Counted from the first letter of the stretch, positions 3,235 to 14,406 are shown. The stretch is 64,000 nt of DNA from Actinomycetota bacterium (GCA_030447305.1 JAUJPC010000001.1:114459-178458), one strand, 5' to 3'. Program-made: numbers and translations. Notes: generated by a model from the sequence alone, not told the origin.

Positions 3235-3330
3235 GTATAACGGATCATTGGTTAAGCTGCGCGGCGCCAACGCGGAATGGCGTTACACGAGTCACTTACG
3301 CGCCGTGTCAGTTTCAACCGCTTGTTAGAC
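3235..3330 (-). other. attC site (96 bp)
   Basis: GTATAAC 3235 ... GTTAGAC 3324. Confidence 0.88.
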
Positions 3331-3879: not shown

Positions 3880-3942
3880 GTCTAACGGAATGCCGGGTCA
3901 GCCGCCGCCCGCGAAGCCGGCGGTCGGTTGCAGCCGGCAGTT
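3880..3942 (-). other. attC site interrupted at its GTT by IS110; remainder GTTAGGC at 8115-8121
   Basis: GTCTAAC 3880 ... ccggcaGTT 3940-3942; joining to AGGC at 8118 restores GTTAGGC, the complement of GCCTAAC at 8849. Confidence 0.85.
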
Positions 3943-4029
3943 GATACATATCGACCCTGATCCACTACTCGATGCGGGTCCTGTGCGAGTAAGGGACCTC
4001 CAGCTGTGGTTGACGACAGGGAGGTGGCC

Positions 4030-5319
4030 GTGGGGGACATCGGAGGGGTTGAGCAGGGCCGGTTTGTCGAGCGGATCCGAAACGCCGAAAGAGAGCGGTT
4101 GCTGGCAGCCCCGATCGACGTCGGCAAAAGGACCGCTGCAGCTCTGGTCTGCGACTTTTGGGGTGAGATCGTCACTGCCCCTTTCGAGTTCGATCTGAAC
4201 GAATCCGGCTTCACCAAGCTTAGGGCGCAGCTGGTTAGAGCGGAAGCCAGCCGGGACGTTGCCCTTACCCGGGTCGGGGTCGAGCAGGCCGGCCACTACC
4301 ACGACACCCTGGTTGCCCGGCTGCAGACCGAAGGCCTGGACGTGGTGGTGCGCTCAGAACCTGCTGCGCTCGGTCAAGACCGACGCCCGGGACCTGGCGG
4401 CGATGGCCGAGTTGATGATCCGTGGTCTGGGACGCCGCCCGGAGCTCGAGGACGGCCCGGTGGCCCGTCAGGCGGTCCTGGTCGCTCATCGACGGCGCAA
4501 GATCAAGGCCCGCAGGGCGCTTAAGAATCAGGTGCTCGCCACCTGGGATCTGGTCTTCCCCGGACTCGACGGGTGCTTTTCAGACATGTTGTCGACCAAG
4601 GTCGGCAAGGCGCTGCTGGCCGAGGCGATCACTCCCTCCCGGGTGCTTCATCTGGGACCCGAGCGCTTCCGGGCCTTCTGCGCCAACCGGGGAGTGGTGG
4701 TCGATCGTTTCAAAGCCGATCAGGTGATTAAGGCGGCCAGAGAAGCGTTTGCGCTGCCGGATGTGCGTGCTCAGGTGCTGCTCGAGGTTCTGGCGGTTGA
4801 CGCCAAACTCATGCAGAAGTTGGATTCGACCATCGAGGCGGCCGACCATTGTCTGGCCGAGGTCCTCGGTGACACCCCGGCACGGGTGCTCACTTCGATC
4901 CCTCATGTCGGGGTGGTTCGGGCCTCCAACTACGGCGGGGCGGTGGGCAACATCGACCGCTTCACCAGCTCGGCTCAGGTCTACAAGTTGAGCGGCCTGG
5001 TATCGAAACTGCACGAGTCGGCGGGCAAACGCCGGGGAGGTCTGGCGATCAGCAGGGCGGGCAAGGTCGAGCTCAGAGAGGCGATTCTGGAGCTCGGCAA
5101 GGGGCTGCGTCTGGGTGATCCCGACTTGGAGACTACGCCCGGCAGATGAAACAGCGGGGTAAGCCGGGCGGTGTGATCCTGTGCGCTTTGGGGCACCGGG
5201 CCAACCGACTGGCGTTCGCCATGATGCGCGACCAGAGCCGGTTCGAGCCCAAGGCGTGGCCGGCGCGAGAAGCGGACGGAGCCCTCATGCCCGACCTAGG
5301 TCGACCACCATCGAAGTGA
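4030..5319 (+). pseudogene. IS110 transposase/recombinase with an apparent deletion near 4350 and a frameshift near 5128
   Basis: PIDVGK, GVEQAG, KTDARD and ESAGK motifs across three frames; GGGAGG RBS before GTG 4030. Confidence 0.85.
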
Positions 5320-5385
5320 ACCGTCCGCCGGGCTGATCGTTTCATCTTCAAACAGGTTTGGCGAACGCAGGCCGAGGTGTGGACG

Positions 5386-5461
5386 GGGCCGGATCTCAAC
5401 GTCGAGCCAGTTAAGGGGCCCGAACTACTCGGGACTTCGTGCCTAACATGACGCCCGGCCC
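5386..5461 (+). ncRNA. Putative bridge/seek RNA target-binding loop of the first IS110
   Basis: Nested stems around an internal loop carrying GCCAGTTA (5406-5413, matches left target) and TGCCTAAC (5440-5447, reverse complement of GTTAGGCA at 8115-8122). Confidence 0.75.
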
Positions 5462-5665: not shown

Positions 5666-6987
5666 ATGATGACTCAGGAGGAGTATTTGGACATTCCAGG
5701 ACTGAAAAGGCAAGGCTGGACCCTGCAGCAGATCGCCGAGGAGGTCGGGTACCACCCGGCGACGGTACGGGAGTGGATCCGCCGGGGTGGACCGCCACAG
5801 AAGCGGCAGATCGATCCGGCCAACCTTGTGATCAACGAGCACTGGGCCCAAGAGATAGCCATGCTGCTCAAGGCCAACCCCAACCTGCTCGCCACCTCGG
5901 TCGAGCGGCTGCTCCGAGCTAAAGGCTTCACCGGCAGCTACCCGACGCTCGCTCGGTACCTGTGCGGGGTGCGAGGCTCACGTCGGGGCCGGCAGGTCGA
6001 GGTTTCGGTTCCGATCGAGACCGCCCCCGGGGAGGAGTTCCAGTTCGACTGGTCCGACTGTTGCGACTTCGCCCGGCTGTGGGGGTGGGAGCAGCTGCAC
6101 TGTTTCGGGGCGATCCTGTGCTACTGCCGGCGCCGCCACTGGTGGTTCACCGACTCAATCGACCGCCACCACACCTTCGAGGGGCTGGTGCGCTTTTCGA
6201 GGACACCGGCGGAGTCCCCGGAGTCGGACGCACCGACCGGATGGGGTGCCTGGGTCGCTCCCACGGCCGGGTGTTTCGCTGGTTCGCTGAGTCGTTGGAG
6301 TTCGCCGCCTACCACGGCTTTTCCTTCAAGGCGTGCCAGGCCGGCGACGCCAAGCGCAAGGGCAAGGTGGAGCGTCCCTTTTGGGAGATGAAGGAGGCGT
6401 TCTTGCAGGAGGTGACCGTGACCGGACCACCCGCCAGCATCAACGAGCTGAACCGAAGGGCTGACGAATGGCTCGAGCACAACGTCCACCACCGGCCCCA
6501 TCGGGTGACCGGGATGGCTCCGGCGGAGCGGATCAAAGACGAGCTGCAGATGTTGGGGCCGCTTCCCCGCCTCAGATTCGACACCTCAAAGCGGGAGTCC
6601 CGCCAGGTCGGGCAAGCGGTTCCGATGATCGAGGTCGACGGGGTCTTCTACTCGGTGCCACCGGCCCTGGCCAGCCAGATCGTGGAGGTCAGGCTGCCGG
6701 TTGACCGGCGAATCATCGAGGTACGCCACCGGGGCCAGCTGCAGGTTACCCACCAGATTGCCCCCTCAGGTTCCGAGCCGGTCTGGGACCCGCGCCACCG
6801 CCGGGAAGCGGAGCAGATTGCACTCAGCCGCCACCGGCGAACCCCGAGGTTCTCCCCGCATGAGCAGGTCTTGGTTGATCTGCTCGATCTTGGTGAGGGC
6901 GACTACGACGTCGAGCCGGTTCGGCTTGAGAGCTATGACCCGGACTCAGCCTGCTGCGGTTGCGGCTGGGCAGGGGGTGTGCGGTGA
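5666..6987 (+). CDS. istA: IS21 transposase IstA, frameshift near 6195
   Basis: N-terminal HTH, ETAPGEEFQFDW, KGKVERPF and YSVPP motifs. Confidence 0.9.
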
Positions 6988-8142: not shown

Positions 8143-8838
8143 TCAAGGCAAGTGGTCGCTGCAAAACTTCTGGACGAACAGAAGCATTTGTTTGACCTGT
8201 TCCTTGTCGTAATTCGAGAAACGACCATGTGCCGCATCATTTCGCAAATTTGCCCACGAGGTGATCTGCTTCTGAACGAGAGGACCGTACAGTTTTGCTT
8301 TGTATAGGGCGTTGTTGAGCGGATCAATCGTGAACGGCTTCCCGTCTTGATGTGACGTTTGAAGCCCACTGGAGTCAGCAATTTTTCGAAGCGAGTCTTC
8401 AAGTACCGCCCCCAAGAGCACGGCTGAAGCATCCTTGTAGCCCTCCTCGAGCAAATGCTCTGCCATTTCAAGAAAGTCCGCGAAGATCTCCGCCCGCAGT
8501 AACCCCTGCAAGCTCAATATCAAGCCAGAGCTAACGTCGTGTGCAACGCTGCGAAGGATTCCAACTAGTTCACTAACGTGCTCGTAATGGTTGGAATGGA
8601 TAACTGTGAAGGCCGGAGTTGCCAACACTTTCTGCATCGACTGGTGGTAGTGGCTCTCTTTTCCATAGAGACGCAAGACGAGTTGCCCACCCCTTACCGC
8701 TACGGACGACAACTCTTCAATTTGATCATGGCCTAGGGACCGGTCAGCTCTGCTCGCCTCAGCTGACAGCCGGCTAGCGCTTTCGACTAAGTCCTTGACC
8801 TCGTTCGCGACCAGTTCGGTAACCTGGCTAACTGGCAT
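8143..8838 (-). CDS. HEPN-domain (DUF4145-like) cassette protein
   Basis: AEHLLEEGYKDASAVLLGAVLED and Rx4H motif RNDAAH. Confidence 0.8.
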   Translation of the reverse strand: MPVSQVTELVANEVKDLVESASRLSAEASRADRSLGHDQIEELSSVAVRGGQLVLRLYGKESHYHQSMQKVLATPAFTVIHSNHYEHVSELVGILRSVAHDVSSGLILSLQGLLRAEIFADFLEMAEHLLEEGYKDASAVLLGAVLEDSLRKIADSSGLQTSHQDGKPFTIDPLNNALYKAKLYGPLVQKQITSWANLRNDAAHGRFSNYDKEQVKQMLLFVQKFCSDHLP

Positions 8839-8920: not shown

Positions 8921-9609
8921 CTATGCTGTCCCCTCGTACTGGACGAGCTCCCATGGGTACACCGCGAGACAGTCATAAATATGCTGACGCACCCTATTTG
9001 AAGAGACTGCCGCGAGCCGCTGGATGAAATCTGCGGATTTAGTCACGTCTGACTTCTTTACGGAGCGGCTGGTGGACACACGGTGAGCAATTTCACCCCT
9101 CAACTCGACTCGCCTGGTTAGGCGTGCGCGGGCTGAATCCGGTGTGGTCCTATGCCACGCCAGCAATCCGACAACCGTGTAATTCCGAGAAGATCCTCGA
9201 AAAGGGCGTCGATCTGCTCAGGCTTGGGAGTATTCAAAGCCCCGGCGAAGCGCTTCAAAATCTTGTCCCGGTGCGCTTGAAGTATGACTTGCCATCCTGT
9301 TCCAGCGAGTTCCCAGACTCGGCGTTCGTCGTTGCTGCTCCTAACCTCTCTGGACGCCGCAGTAAGGACTTTTGACGGAAACACCGAGTGAGTAGTTGCG
9401 GCGGCCAGCATCGTGTCAAACGCACTGGTCGCAAGGTCTTCAACGTACGCCTCCCAGCAGGCGACCAAGAGCACCACGCCACTCTTGTTCAAGACGACGA
9501 TGTCGTGACGCCTCCCCGGGCGAGTCCCGGAAATCTCCTCGTGTATTGCAACAAGGCGTAAGACCTCATAGGTGTTCGAATTCAGGTTTGCGACATGGGT
9601 GGGGGGCAT
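8921..9609 (-). CDS. HEPN-domain (RiboL-PSP-HEPN-like) cassette protein, frameshift near 9165
   Basis: NKSGVVLLVACWEAYVED, LNTP and Rx4H motif RGEIAH. Confidence 0.75.
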
Positions 9610-9665
9610 ATTAGTGGCTGCCTAAGGTGAAAATCCACTTGTGCGACCTTGATGCCCTCCCGTGA

Positions 9666-10909
9666 TCATGCCGCCTCCAGCGGGGTGAGGTGAACCTGGT
9701 ACCCGAGAGCGTTCAGCTGCTGCGTTAGCTTACGGGCATGCTGCACCTTGTTCTGTCTGGACATGAACCAGTCAGGGCCTAGGTCCTTGTAGGGAACCAT
9801 GTCCTCAAGGATGTGGAAAGCGGCAACCAAGATCGAGTGGGCGACCGCCACGGTGGCCTTGGCCTGGCCCCTGCGGCCGCGGAGCCGAGCGTACTGGGCG
9901 AAGAGGTAGGTGCCTTTGGCCTTACCGGCAGCCTTGGCCGCCTGCGTGAGGTCCATGTGGAGCCACTTTGAACCCTTCCTGGTCTTGCCGGTGTGGCTCT
10001 TGCCCGCAGACTCGTGCTGGCCGGGACACATTCCCGCCCAGGACGCCAGTCGTCCTGGTGAGCCGAATCGAGCCATGTCGACTCCGATCTCAGCGATGAT
10101 CGATTGAGCGACCCGCTTGTCGACTCCGGGAATGGTGTCGAGCAGTTCAACCTGACGCTCGAAAGGGGCAATGACCACCTCGATCTCGTCGGAAAGCGAC
10201 TGGATCAGCTCGTCGAGAAAGTCCAGCTTGGACAGGATCGCCCCTACTACCAAGGCATGGTGAGAGGTGAACCGCCCGGTCAGGGCATCCTTGAGGTCGG
10301 GAAGCTTCCTGCGCAGCGTTCCCTTCGCAAGATCGGCCAGGATCTGTGGGTCGGTGGTGCCCTCCACCAAATCAAAGCCTTCAGCATCGCCTTGCCGCTG
10401 ACGCCGAGCACGTGAGTCGCCACCGACGACAACTTGATGCCGGCGTCCTGGAGCACCTTGTCCAGACGCTGCGCCTCGCGAGAGCGCTCCTCGATCTGGG
10501 CCTTGCGGTAGCGGGTCAGATTGCGCAGCTCCCGGATCTGCTTGGGCGGCACGAAGCTCGGTTTCACCAGACCGTGCGCCACGAGCTGGGCGATCCAGGC
10601 AGCGTCGGCCACATCGGTCTTGCGGCCCGGGACGTTGCGAAGATGGCGGGCGTTCAAAAGCCAACACTCGAACTCATCCTCGAGCATGTAGTAAACGGGC
10701 TTCCAGTAGACCCCGGTCGACTCCATCCCAACCACATCGACGTCGAAGGCCTTCAACCAGTCCCTCAGCGCAAGCAATTCGACAGTGGTGGTCTTAAAAG
10801 TGTGGGTCTGGGACTGTCGGCTTGCGCCTTGATCCCCGAACCTGACGCAGGCGACCACAGTGTCCTTGTGCACGTCCAAGCCTGCACACCTGTTGATGAG
10901 CGTGTCCAC
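9666..10909 (-). CDS. IS110 transposase/recombinase, frameshift near 10370
   Basis: GLDVHK, GMESTG, KTDVADA, TIPGVD and HESAGK motifs. Confidence 0.92.
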
Positions 10910-10929
10910 TCAACCTCCCCTCGATCGAA

Positions 10930-11125
10930 CAATCGAGACCGCCCAGGGGAGCCTCATCGCATGGAGTCTAAGGTTCGTGCTCGCAGCAACAGTTCACGGT
11001 GCCCGAAGCTCCCGGGTCCCACTAACGGACGGGCTCGCTTGCACCAAGGCGACTCGACCTCGCAGGACAGTCCGCTCACATTTTCATCTGTTGCTGGTGC
11101 CGTAGCCAAAGGCGCGGCATTCTCA
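10930..11125 (-). ncRNA. Putative bridge RNA of the second IS110
   Basis: TCCGTTAG (11022-11029) equals the target flank plus core, and ACCTTAG (10968-10974) equals the element end plus core; each is enclosed by a short stem. Confidence 0.65.
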
Positions 11126-11187
11126 CTAACGGATCGGTCGATTAGCCGCTAGTGCAGCCGGCCGTCAGTCGTCCCGGCCATTTAGGC
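11126..11187 (-). other. Remainder of the attC interrupted by the second IS110
   Basis: CTAACGGAT ... TTTAGGC 11181, one mismatch from the complement of GCCTAAC at 11461. Confidence 0.65.
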
Positions 11188-11528: not shown

Positions 11529-11741
11529 TCATCGGAGACGATTGAACTCTTCTACAGAGAGTCCGGCGTCTTTCACGATCCCACCCATGGTGAATGCGTT
11601 CACCGGGTTCGCTCGAGGAATCGTCAGAATTCGCTGCCCGTTCGACATGACGACGTGCTTGCCCTGCCGAACGATATTGAACCCGGCTTTCTGGAGGGCC
11701 CGCACAGCTTCCTGGTGCGAGACGCCCGGAATGCTCGGCAT
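11529..11741 (-). CDS. hicA: HicA-family toxin
   Basis: ALQKAGF..VRQGKHVVM..LTIP..GIVKDAGLSVEEF. Confidence 0.88.
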   Translation of the reverse strand: MPSIPGVSHQEAVRALQKAGFNIVRQGKHVVMSNGQRILTIPRANPVNAFTMGGIVKDAGLSVEEFNRLR

Positions 11742-11944
11742 TAGATGGCGACTTCGATCTCCCTGATCTCGGCGCCTTCCAGTTGCTCATCAGCTACGGA
11801 GAGGTAAGCGTGAATGGCATCCTTGACGTTCTCGAGAGCCTCGTCTTCGTCGCTTCCCTGAGACCAACAACCGGGAAGCCCGGGCACTGACACGGCAACG
11901 CCTTCATCCGATTTAAACAGGGCTACCCGAAACCGCTGAGTCAT
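11741..11944 (-). CDS. hicB: Short HicB-family antitoxin
   Basis: VSVPGLPGCWSQG..EALENVKDAI; TAATG overlap with hicA. Confidence 0.88.
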   Translation of the reverse strand: MTQRFRVALFKSDEGVAVSVPGLPGCWSQGSDEDEALENVKDAIHAYLSVADEQLEGAEIREIEVAI

Positions 11945-11982
11945 GTAATCAGTGTACAGAGGGGATCTGACGACATCAGTCG

Positions 11983-12105
11983 ACATAACGGATTAGCGCC
12001 TCAGCCGTCCGCCCGCGTAGCCGGCGGTCGGTTGCAGGCATAACGGATTAGCGCCTCAGCCGTCCGCCCGCGTAGCCGGCGGTCGGTTGCAGGCGCTAGT
12101 TATAC
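11983..12105 (-). repeat. attC site with a tandem 55-bp duplication
   Basis: 11984-12038 equals 12039-12093; complete attC runs GCATAAC 12038 ... GTTATAC 12099. Confidence 0.9.
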
Positions 12106-13351: not shown

Positions 13352-14406
13352 TCAGTCAGTGTACCGCGGTAACCGTTCGGTTGACCCAAATCTATCCAGC
13401 GGACTCCTCACGCCATGGCCGCCTCGATTGAGAACATGGGTGTAGATCTGAGTGGTCTTTACGCTGGCATGACCCAATAGCTCCTGGACCGTTCTGATGT
13501 CGTAACCGTCTTCCAAGAGGTGCGTAGCGAACGAGTGCCGCAGTACGTGAGGAGTTGCGTGTTTAGCGATCTGAGCTCTCAGGCTGGCGCTGCGGACTGC
13601 CTTCTGCACTACGGACTGGTGTAAGTGGTAGCGATATTTGATGCCGTCGTGTCATCAGTGAAGTAAGTGGCCGCAGGGAAGAGCCACTGCCAGCCCCACT
13701 CCCTTTCAGCGTTGCGGTATTTGCGGCCGAGCGCGTAAGGCAAAGGCACCCGCCCCAGTCCCATGGTCAGGTCTTTGTCATGAATACGTTTCGCACGTAC
13801 TAGATGGCTCTTCAATGGATTCATGACCAGGTCGGGCAGCATGGTGATTCGGTCTTTGTTGCCCTTCGCCCGTTTGATCGTTATCTGCCGACGCCCGAAA
13901 TCGACATCTTTGGCCCTTAGGTTGAGCGCTTCATCCAGCCGTAGGCCGCTTCCGTAGAGAAGCTGGCAGATAAGCAATGGAAGGCCATCCAGCTGCTCGA
14001 ATAGCACACGCACTTCCGACCTGGATAGAACCGTGGGCATGCGTTTGGGCTTTCGCGCCCTGGCGATGTTCTCCATATGTTCCAGAGGCTGACCGAGCAC
14101 CTTGGAATAAAAGAATAGGAGCGCACACAGCGCCTGATTCTGGGTGGAAGCGGCAACATCCTCGCCGACCGCCAACTGCGTAAGGAATGCATTGACCTGC
14201 TCTTCACGCAATTCATGGAGGTCGATGCCACCATGAAAGCGAAGAAAGCGCTCTATCCAGAACAGGTAAGCCTTCGCGGTTCTCTCACCGTAGTTTCGAG
14301 CACGTAGGACCCGGCGTGCTCTTTCTACGGCTTCGTCTTGGGGTTTCCGAACAACCTGCAGACGAGGACGCGCATTGGTTAGGCGAGCTTCCCGGGACGT
14401 ACTCAA
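13352..14406 (-). CDS. intI: Integron integrase (tyrosine recombinase), single-base frameshift near 13645
   Basis: [22 protein letters not shown], integron-specific insert [50 protein letters not shown]. Confidence 0.96.

Follow-up and report, generated by a model that had tools for sequence, protein, structure and literature searches.

The 64,000-nucleotide stretch of Actinomycetota bacterium DNA considered here (GCA_030447305.1 JAUJPC010000001.1:114459-178458; "the window" in what follows, to which plain coordinates refer) carries an array of integron gene cassettes, one of whose attC sites is split by an insertion sequence of the IS110 family (9622-11127, minus strand). We put at roughly 0.7 the probability that this is a dead element of an actinobacterial IS110 clade that was directed into the 3' boundary of the attC by a guide RNA of its own. 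The reading is carried by the anatomy of the element, the covariation of guides with flanks throughout its family, the helices of its RNA-coding region, and the presence of an attC array with an integron integrase. Mechanistically, the element would have been moved by DEDD recombination guided by a bridge RNA (or seekRNA): the non-coding region would encode an RNA of ~190 nucleotides (nt), a three-way junction with a target-loop arm and a donor-loop arm, made and bound by the transposase; the element would move by way of a circle; and recombination through an AG core would open the attC 3' boundary, with guides that read CCGTT-AG-GC. That recombination took place at this boundary is suggested by the target guides themselves, which equal the spacer and R' box conserved in the host's attC family. 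It may be, further, that attC is the habitual target of the lineage and not just a 9-mer.

The element is bounded by AG at 9622-9623 and at 11126-11127, and is 1504 base pairs (bp) long if one core is counted. Plus-strand CTAA occurs at 9622-9625 and again at 11126-11129, and excision of 9626-11129 leaves GCCTAACGGAT, as an earlier note on this DNA had read it. Read in the direction of the transposase gene (minus strand), the element is joined to its target as ATCCG-TTAG-TGAGAA on the left, with TTAG at 11129-11126, and as TTTTCACC-TTAG-GCAGCC on the right, with TTAG at 9625-9622; the restored site is ...ATCCGTTAGGC..., equivalent to GCCTAACGGAT on the plus strand. The same note had taken CTAA/TTAG for a four-nucleotide duplication or core, and there the relatives disagree with it: over the window and 160 related loci, the core common to both junctions is AG only. 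The TT that precedes AG at both ends in the window is thus a coincidence, the left TT coming from the target and the right TT from the donor. In relatives present as several copies within a genome (L047/L048/L050 and L066-L069), divergence starts exactly outside AG on both sides. Besides the one full copy, the genome holds a decayed relative (contig C1:4441-5501, 69-71% identical, its N-terminus deleted and its frame shifted several times), whose junction tetramers are unlike, TTAG and TCAG: a further argument for a 2-nt core. In this relic the left target guide is GUCUUAG and the left donor guide is ACCUCAG, and both continue to fit flanks that are its own and unlike those of the window element. 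The absence of a target duplication and the same short core at both junctions, which characterize the family, are accordingly found, as AG, in the window and in the relatives. An ordinary cut-and-paste transposon, with a duplicated 4-bp TTAG and with non-coding matches that are there by chance, would likewise present TTAG at both junctions; that explanation is hardly credible and already contradicted, since AG alone is common to the two junctions in the 160 related loci, since what precedes AG tracks one guide at the left junction and another at the right, and since the DEDD transposase family, in so far as the available text of PMC11187229 describes it, makes no target duplication.

(On the sample: a scan of genomes confirmed 159 relatives and a scan of metagenomes 422, the best 80 of each being kept; identities are 64-81% over the N-terminal 174 amino acids (aa) for the former and 72-83% for the latter. 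Those that carry names are mostly metagenome-assembled genomes of Actinomycetota, Acidimicrobiia, Chloroflexota and Dormibacterota, with Streptomyces, Frankia and Kutzneria isolates in addition. For the guides, 162 upstream regions were aligned; 31 were dropped for a non-standard length of the loop segment, a flank shorter than 8 nt or an aligned core other than AG, and removal of duplicates left 115 distinct elements. At loci L060, L064, L066, L135, L143 and L149 the right flank of one copy is another's left end, or the left flank another's right end, a head-to-tail tandem or nested arrangement.)

The non-coding DNA of the element lies almost entirely ahead of the transposase gene, as the earlier note had recognized: 216 nt upstream (10910-11125, minus strand), with only 42 nt downstream, the disposition that separates the IS110 group from the IS1111 group. 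The region is predicted to encode the bridge or seekRNA, and its structured core (10939-11070) aligns in 81 diverse sequences. Two of the guides had been noticed before as bare matches, TCCGTTAG at 11029-11022 and ACCTTAG at 10974-10968 on the minus strand; both are present, and they are the left guides for target and donor, respectively. The left target guide, U-CCGUU-AG (11022-11029), is identical to the left flank ATCCGTT-AG; its five bases precede AG in a loop situated after a conserved GAGCCCG. Across the 115 elements it agrees with the left flank at positions -1 to -5 in 107, 106, 99, 102 and 92 cases, shuffled pairings giving means of 30-50 and a maximum of 64, and all seven letters of guide plus core agree in 69. 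Position -6 carries no signal (19/115, shuffled mean 16), so the eighth matching letter in the window is uninformative and the effective guide is 11022-11028, five nucleotides plus core. The earlier note had named a failure of these 7-8-nt matches to covary in relatives as fatal to its reading; in the event, guides and flanks covary well beyond shuffles. The two bases after the loop AG (UG, 11020-11021) equal bases 1 and 2 of the element, each in 112/115 (shuffled means 77.6 and 40.3), and behave like the dinucleotide that follows the left target guide in IS621, the "handshake" guide, a term that reportedly goes back to the paper on the structure of IS621.

The left donor guide, ACCUU-AG (10968-10974), is placed in a second loop, after a conserved GAGCACGA, and its five bases plus AG are those of the element's right end, CACCTT-AG (9622-9629). 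Mutual information between guide and donor positions -2 to -5 is 1.1-1.7 bits, a test that is partly circular because right ends were located with the guide 7-mer; the assignment is backed independently by the alignment of right ends and by the multi-copy relatives. A right target guide, which the earlier reader had missed, is found directly 5' of a conserved UGGUGC: UCGCCU (11047-11052), of which GCCU (11047-11050) is complementary to AG plus the GC of the right flank. Its equivalents in the family are the reverse complement of AG and right flank, with a mean contiguous match of 3.17 over 112 distinct element/flank pairs, against 2.27 in 1000 shuffles (standard deviation 0.07, maximum 2.48); the first set alone gives 3.27 against 2.37. 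The bases after the donor-loop core show a weak excess of agreement with the right flank at position 2 only (51/114, against 32.8 and a maximum of 46). Guides that covary with target and donor flanks, a defining trait of the family, can accordingly be read from the sequence, the RNA being predicted; no Rfam family is matched within the element, and the only matches in the window are three tRNAs.

One additional pairing ties the non-coding region to the far end of the element. A subterminal repeat at the right end (9629-9635, minus strand), immediately interior to the stretch that the donor guide matches, is complementary to GAAAAUG at 11079-11085; in 76 elements the complementarity is kept by 67-75 at positions -6 to -11, and it covaries at -10, -11 and -12 (68 vs 48.7, 67 vs 36.7 and 30 vs 17.4). 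In terms of the subterminal repeats by which IS110 and IS1111 elements are told apart, this is a covarying inverted repeat of 6-7 nt, with a left copy that is internal, 40-46 nt in from the left end. The pair may represent a subterminal inverted repeat whose left member is displaced, or an extra RNA guide for the donor.

Covariation also supports a three-way-junction fold for the predicted RNA. (Another technical matter: the consensus that plain RNAalifold derived from a MAFFT alignment was poor, so helices were taken from pairwise covariation and retested on a fresh alignment, A3, of 80 of 102 diverse relatives from among the 115, plus the window.) Helix H (11064-11070/10939-10945; 89.8% paired, 7/7 pairs changed on both sides) closes the structure. 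The target arm is formed by helix D (11056-11059/11015-11018; 99.4% paired) and by the 3-bp inner stem M (11044-11046/11030-11032; 99.6%), between which an internal loop holds the right target guide on its 5' side and the left target guide and handshake on its 3' side. The donor arm consists of helix A (11005-11012/10948-10955; 98.0% paired, 7/8 pairs changed on both sides), helix B (11002-11004/10963-10965; 98.8%) and the hairpin C (10986-10988/10978-10980; 98.4%), and the 3' side of its internal loop contains the left donor guide. The structure as a whole is 88.8% paired, against 82.6% in column shuffles, none of 500 of which reach the observed value, and against 34-53% when partners are slid by 1-3 columns; both partners vary in 24 of 32 pairs (shuffled mean 14.8). 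The gcccg/cgggc and gagc/gctc stems into which the earlier note had fitted the two guides do not survive: the letters are there, and covariation assigns them to other helices. A pseudoknot, GGUG/CACC, was tried in place of stem M and rejected (79.3% vs 99.6% paired). A 5' hairpin placed from the window's own sequence is 35% paired in A3 and is thus unsupported, lying in a length-variable region that presents an alignment problem.

The transposase that would have used this RNA is recognizable and broken. Its DEDD/RuvC-like N-terminal part is intact (10388-10909, minus strand, GTG start at 10909; PF01548, DEDD_Tnp_IS110, E 3.7e-29) within a 209-aa open reading frame (ORF) at 10280-10909; the C-terminal part (9666-10367; PF02371, Transposase_20, E 2.4e-18) lies in a second frame, 9666-10400, the two domains having been put into different frames by a 5-nt insertion at 10368-10372. 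The two domains that mark the IS110 family in the broad sense are both present, in a frameshifted gene: the NCBIfam profile of IS110 RNA-guided transposases, NF033542, gives 145.3 bits on the first 174 residues (cutoff 140) and 117 bits on the last 238 (profile positions 153-340). An intact relative of 412 aa (P0001) is 97% identical over the C-terminal part and has no break at the insertion point; P0122, P0124 and P0126 (the last at 86%) are further intact transposases that are close to identical. The contig assembled from the source run is itself identical to the window, so the frameshift is present in the assembly of the reads as well as in the record; two further soil runs from its study (X2 and X3) gave contigs that are without the 5 nt but have a 1-nt deletion at 10732. 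The nearest annotated relatives are IS110-family transposases of Streptomyces and Rhodococcus (50-57% identity), and the nearest plasmid-borne ones are also actinobacterial, none of them above 60% identity.

The target belongs to a well-defined array. Cassette ORFs, attC sites and integrase are all on the minus strand, the array downstream of the 3' end of the adjacent integron integrase gene, which is frameshifted near 13609 into ORFs of 265 and 85 aa (13609-14406 and 13352-13609; TIGR02249, 272.1 bits against a cutoff of 265, and 127.4 bits). The array shows the imperfect palindrome R''-L''...L'-R' ending in GTTRRRY that marks attC, and the window has twelve attC 3' ends; eight of them end in GTTAT(G/A)(C/T), in which the core would be AT, and four in GTTAG. 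The consensus fold of five attCs has 23 pairs, 7 with compensatory changes, arranged as a 7-bp R''/R' stem, an unpaired 4-nt 3' spacer (ATCC, TTCC, GTCC or GTAC) and an 8-bp L''/L' stem. The covariance model built from these five (R1) finds further sites at 3880, 1105, 2545, 8849 and 3235 and a partial one at 12000; its matches in the genome come to 15, nine in the array and six on contig C1. (The latter, all on one strand of C1:210247-216271, are a second cassette array in this genome.) The motif TCCGTTA is found at the seven attC ends to which the earlier note had assigned it, 3 nt from the positions given there, at 3238, 3883, 11986, 12041, 12413, 12743 and 12969; its 11 occurrences in the window compare with an expectation of 2.75, and none of 100 shuffles has as many. 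At 11983-12105 (minus strand) an attC is partly duplicated in tandem: directly behind the complete site, its last 55 nt are repeated.

The insertion lies in the R' (3', crossover) box, where the earlier note had placed it: the junctions can be read directly, and the array's conserved motif and boxes adjoin them. The interrupted attC runs at 11126-11187 (minus strand) from R'' GCCTAAA (11181-11187) to the GTTAG of R', the last two R' bases, GC, being at 9620-9621 beyond the element. Its 3' half, ...GCGGCTAA-TCGACCG-ATCC-GTTAG|GC, comprises in order the conserved array motif, L' box, spacer and R' box. Combined, the two target guides read CCGTT-AG-GC, the last two bases of the spacer plus GTTAGGC, and the match stops where cassette-specific sequence starts (the guide fits GCGA; the flank is GCAG). 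The element has the orientation of the cassettes and ends 12 nt upstream of the start codon of the next one. The crossover point of the integron integrase is G/TT, and the element lies 4 nt 3' of it. Might the element therefore be a gene cassette that the integron integrase captured at G/TT, with no RNA involved? Its orientation and its position 4 nt from a cassette boundary are what such a capture would give. There is no attC at its right end, however (R1 has no match in 9620-9700), its junctions are at AG rather than at G/TT, and guides match both of them, so that capture as a cassette is very improbable.

A more serious question is whether attC was sought as such, or only a word that an attC contains. 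It is conceivable that an element guided by RNA in just the way described was programmed for a 9-10-nt word, that its arrival in an attC was incidental, and that cassette arrays merely tolerate insertions. We regard this as unlikely, if by no means negligible. In its favor are the single known insertion, the scarcity of TCC+GTTAG at the window's attC ends (2/12, with GTTAG at 4/12), the chance frequency of the 10-mer in the genome, and the unrelated guides and targets of the closest relatives. It leaves unaccounted for a pair of guides that spans exactly spacer and R' box and ends at cassette-specific sequence, the position of L163 (see below) at the same place in an attC-like unit, and the many members of the family that lie at one end of ~120-nt palindromic repeats.

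The element in L163 is 73% identical and has the guide GGUU-AG; it is inserted at CGTGCTG-GTTAG|GC, and 113 nt upstream is the partner GTCTAAC-CAGCACG (15/16 complementary), with a second such unit downstream. The site looks like an attC R' box, on a contig too short to show an integrase. By comparison, L165, from a genome of the same family, has an RNA region that is 82% identical and carries a different guide, which matches its own flank. Because so many members are found at one end of ~120-nt palindromic repeats, repeat-seeking would be usual in the clade, and it seems to be common there. L155 and L032 (also L081 and L015) lie at one end of palindromic repeats that are not attC-like, with inverted partners 118-119 nt away (14/16 complementary) or 11-34 nt away.

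Several observations weigh against guided, habitual insertion into attC, which we nonetheless prefer. A right donor guide was not found, either by scanning 3' of the donor guide or by comparing runs with shuffled flanks, nor was there a mutual-information signal against 12 positions of each flank; the strand on which symmetry would place it (10991-11001) is conserved and does not track the first bases of the element. The RNA is known from sequence alone. Pairing is poor in the 5' half of the interrupted attC (R'' is GCCTAAA), and R1 is silent on that site at E<=10. Near-cognate attC ends at 3880 (TCC-GTTAG-AC), 8849 and 11461 (both AC-GTTAG-GC) are empty, as is the other perfect TCCGTTAGGC in the genome, in ordinary non-attC sequence on contig C3; TCCGTTAGGC is moreover no commoner in the genome than its reversed controls (1 vs 2 and 3). 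Finally, there is a single retrievable insertion with this guide, none other being found in 27 genomes of the order; the guide is equally absent from 400 further genomes of the phylum, from viral contigs, and from the best 80 genome and best 80 metagenome loci. The earlier claim that the element "targets attC" is thus borne out to the extent that the guides spell an attC boundary, while as a property of the lineage it has one retrievable insertion to go on.

Contigs of four soil runs of one study, one of which may be the source of this DNA, have the element at the same site. In X2 and X3, a 78-nt contig joins the right end (loose end 9621) to a different flank, at a depth of 23 as compared with 42 for the main context; since this flank is absent from the present genome, a second insertion exists somewhere in the community. 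The contigs of the runs list neither a joint across 9626-11129 nor a circle junction, and contigs cannot show absence.

Elements of the IS1111-attC group are credited with driving repeated rounds of infection and decay in arrays of cassettes. As described in the accessible portion of PMC3001079, they insert close to the 5' end of attC and run antisense to the cassettes; the accessible portion of PMC11187229 gives its examples (ISPa21, ISPst6, ISKpn4 and ISPa25) a non-coding RNA with short matches to both target strands, and puts the top-strand match 5' of the bottom-strand match in IS1111 seekRNAs. To the extent of these descriptions, the present element shares with them a DEDD transposase, site specificity within attC and the order of the top- and bottom-strand matches, and is unlike them in having its RNA upstream rather than downstream, in occupying the R' box rather than the 5' end, and in its sense rather than antisense orientation. 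None of the three marks of that group is found at 9622-11127; all are found in another element of the window, at 3938-5447.

Its likeness to IS621 and ISEc21 is of another kind: in these too the RNA is upstream, a dinucleotide core is found at both junctions without duplication, the target loop is distinct from the donor loop, and the left target guide has a handshake after it. The core of IS621 is CT. The present element differs from these two in its AG core, in having its right target guide 5' of the left one, in the right donor guide that was not found, and in the covarying 6-7-nt inverted repeat that links non-coding region and right end. In the bridge RNA, guides on the left pair with the bottom strand and those on the right with the top strand, according to the part of PMC11208160 that is available, and similarly the left guides here have the sense of the top strand while the right target guide is its complement. 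The order of guides is another matter: ISEc21 has its top-strand match 3' of the bottom-strand match (PMC11187229, with the same restriction), and the present element does not have the bottom-strand match first, 11047-11052 lying 5' of 11022-11029. The group IIC-attC introns are likewise mobile elements that home to attC, near its 5' end and antisense on the part of PMC3001079 available, but they are retro-elements with a different mechanism. In the literature that we searched there was no report of attC targeting by an IS110-type element with upstream RNA; nor was the guide order of this clade found described for an upstream-encoded RNA, although the supplements of the two 2024 papers, PMC11187229 and PMC11208160, might describe it or the clade.

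The other element (3938-5447, plus strand) deserves consideration as a counterpart. Its transposase occupies at least two frames, having been frameshifted at least twice, and some 190-300 nt of non-coding DNA follow the gene; this downstream region contains CAGTTA, its left flank plus the next base. Excision of the element yields TCAT-AAC, a normal R'' box, beside the L'' box of an attC that has its R' at 3880, so that it is inserted at the R'' (5') end and antisense to the cassettes; in this position, this orientation and its downstream RNA region it is like the IS1111-attC elements, as far as the available text of PMC3001079 describes them. It may nevertheless be outside the known clade of that name, too, since its nearest plasmid-borne relatives are actinobacterial (Mycobacterium, Streptomyces and Rhodococcus, 38-44%) and neither Pseudomonas nor Klebsiella is among the 12 matches listed. 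The two transposases of the window are 27% identical over 77 aa (E 0.001). That two distant IS110-family elements occupy opposite ends of attC, with their RNA regions on opposite sides of the gene, had been asserted by the earlier note and is what is seen; the two lineages would have converged on the ends of attC.

How far can this be generalized? A wider reading sees in these relatives a large soil clade of IS110 elements, mostly in Actinomycetota and Chloroflexota, with a permuted three-way-junction RNA encoded upstream, in which the right target guide comes first and an additional repeat, resembling a guide, is opposite the donor's left arm; members of the clade would have been reprogrammed by nature to the 3' crossover box of attC at least twice, in the present element and in L163. 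Such a history would make a second, independent origin of parasitism on integrons, and since the present element comes to rest just within the following cassette and in its sense orientation, the integron integrase might transport it as a piece of that cassette. We hold this as a possibility only, and a doubtful one.

Other contents of the array may be mentioned briefly. Two cassette ORFs on the minus strand, 8143-8838 and 9118-9609, have weak matches to HEPN RiboL-PSP (26.1 and 31.7 bits, cutoff 28.4); the latter ORF begins 12 nt past the right end of the 9622-11127 element. ORFs 11529-11741 and 11741-11986 resemble, by eye, a HicA/HicB pair and are candidates for one. On the plus strand, directly after the 3938-5447 element, a 341-aa ORF (5962-6987) matches the Mu-transposase C-terminal and rve_3 domains: a third transposase within the cassette array.

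Two points are of note: the permuted order of guides in an RNA encoded upstream, and what may be a second origin for the targeting of attC. The attC-seeking insertion sequences found in print are those of the IS1111-attC group only. If the present reading is true, an element with upstream RNA aimed at the opposite end of attC would show that RNA-guided retargeting has reached integron sites more than once. It would also be a natural example of a guide for a recombination site that is structured and strand-asymmetric. Whatever the fate of this particular copy, the alignment of its family is at once a guide map and an RNA fold for a widespread clade, and may help in the engineering of bridge recombinases.

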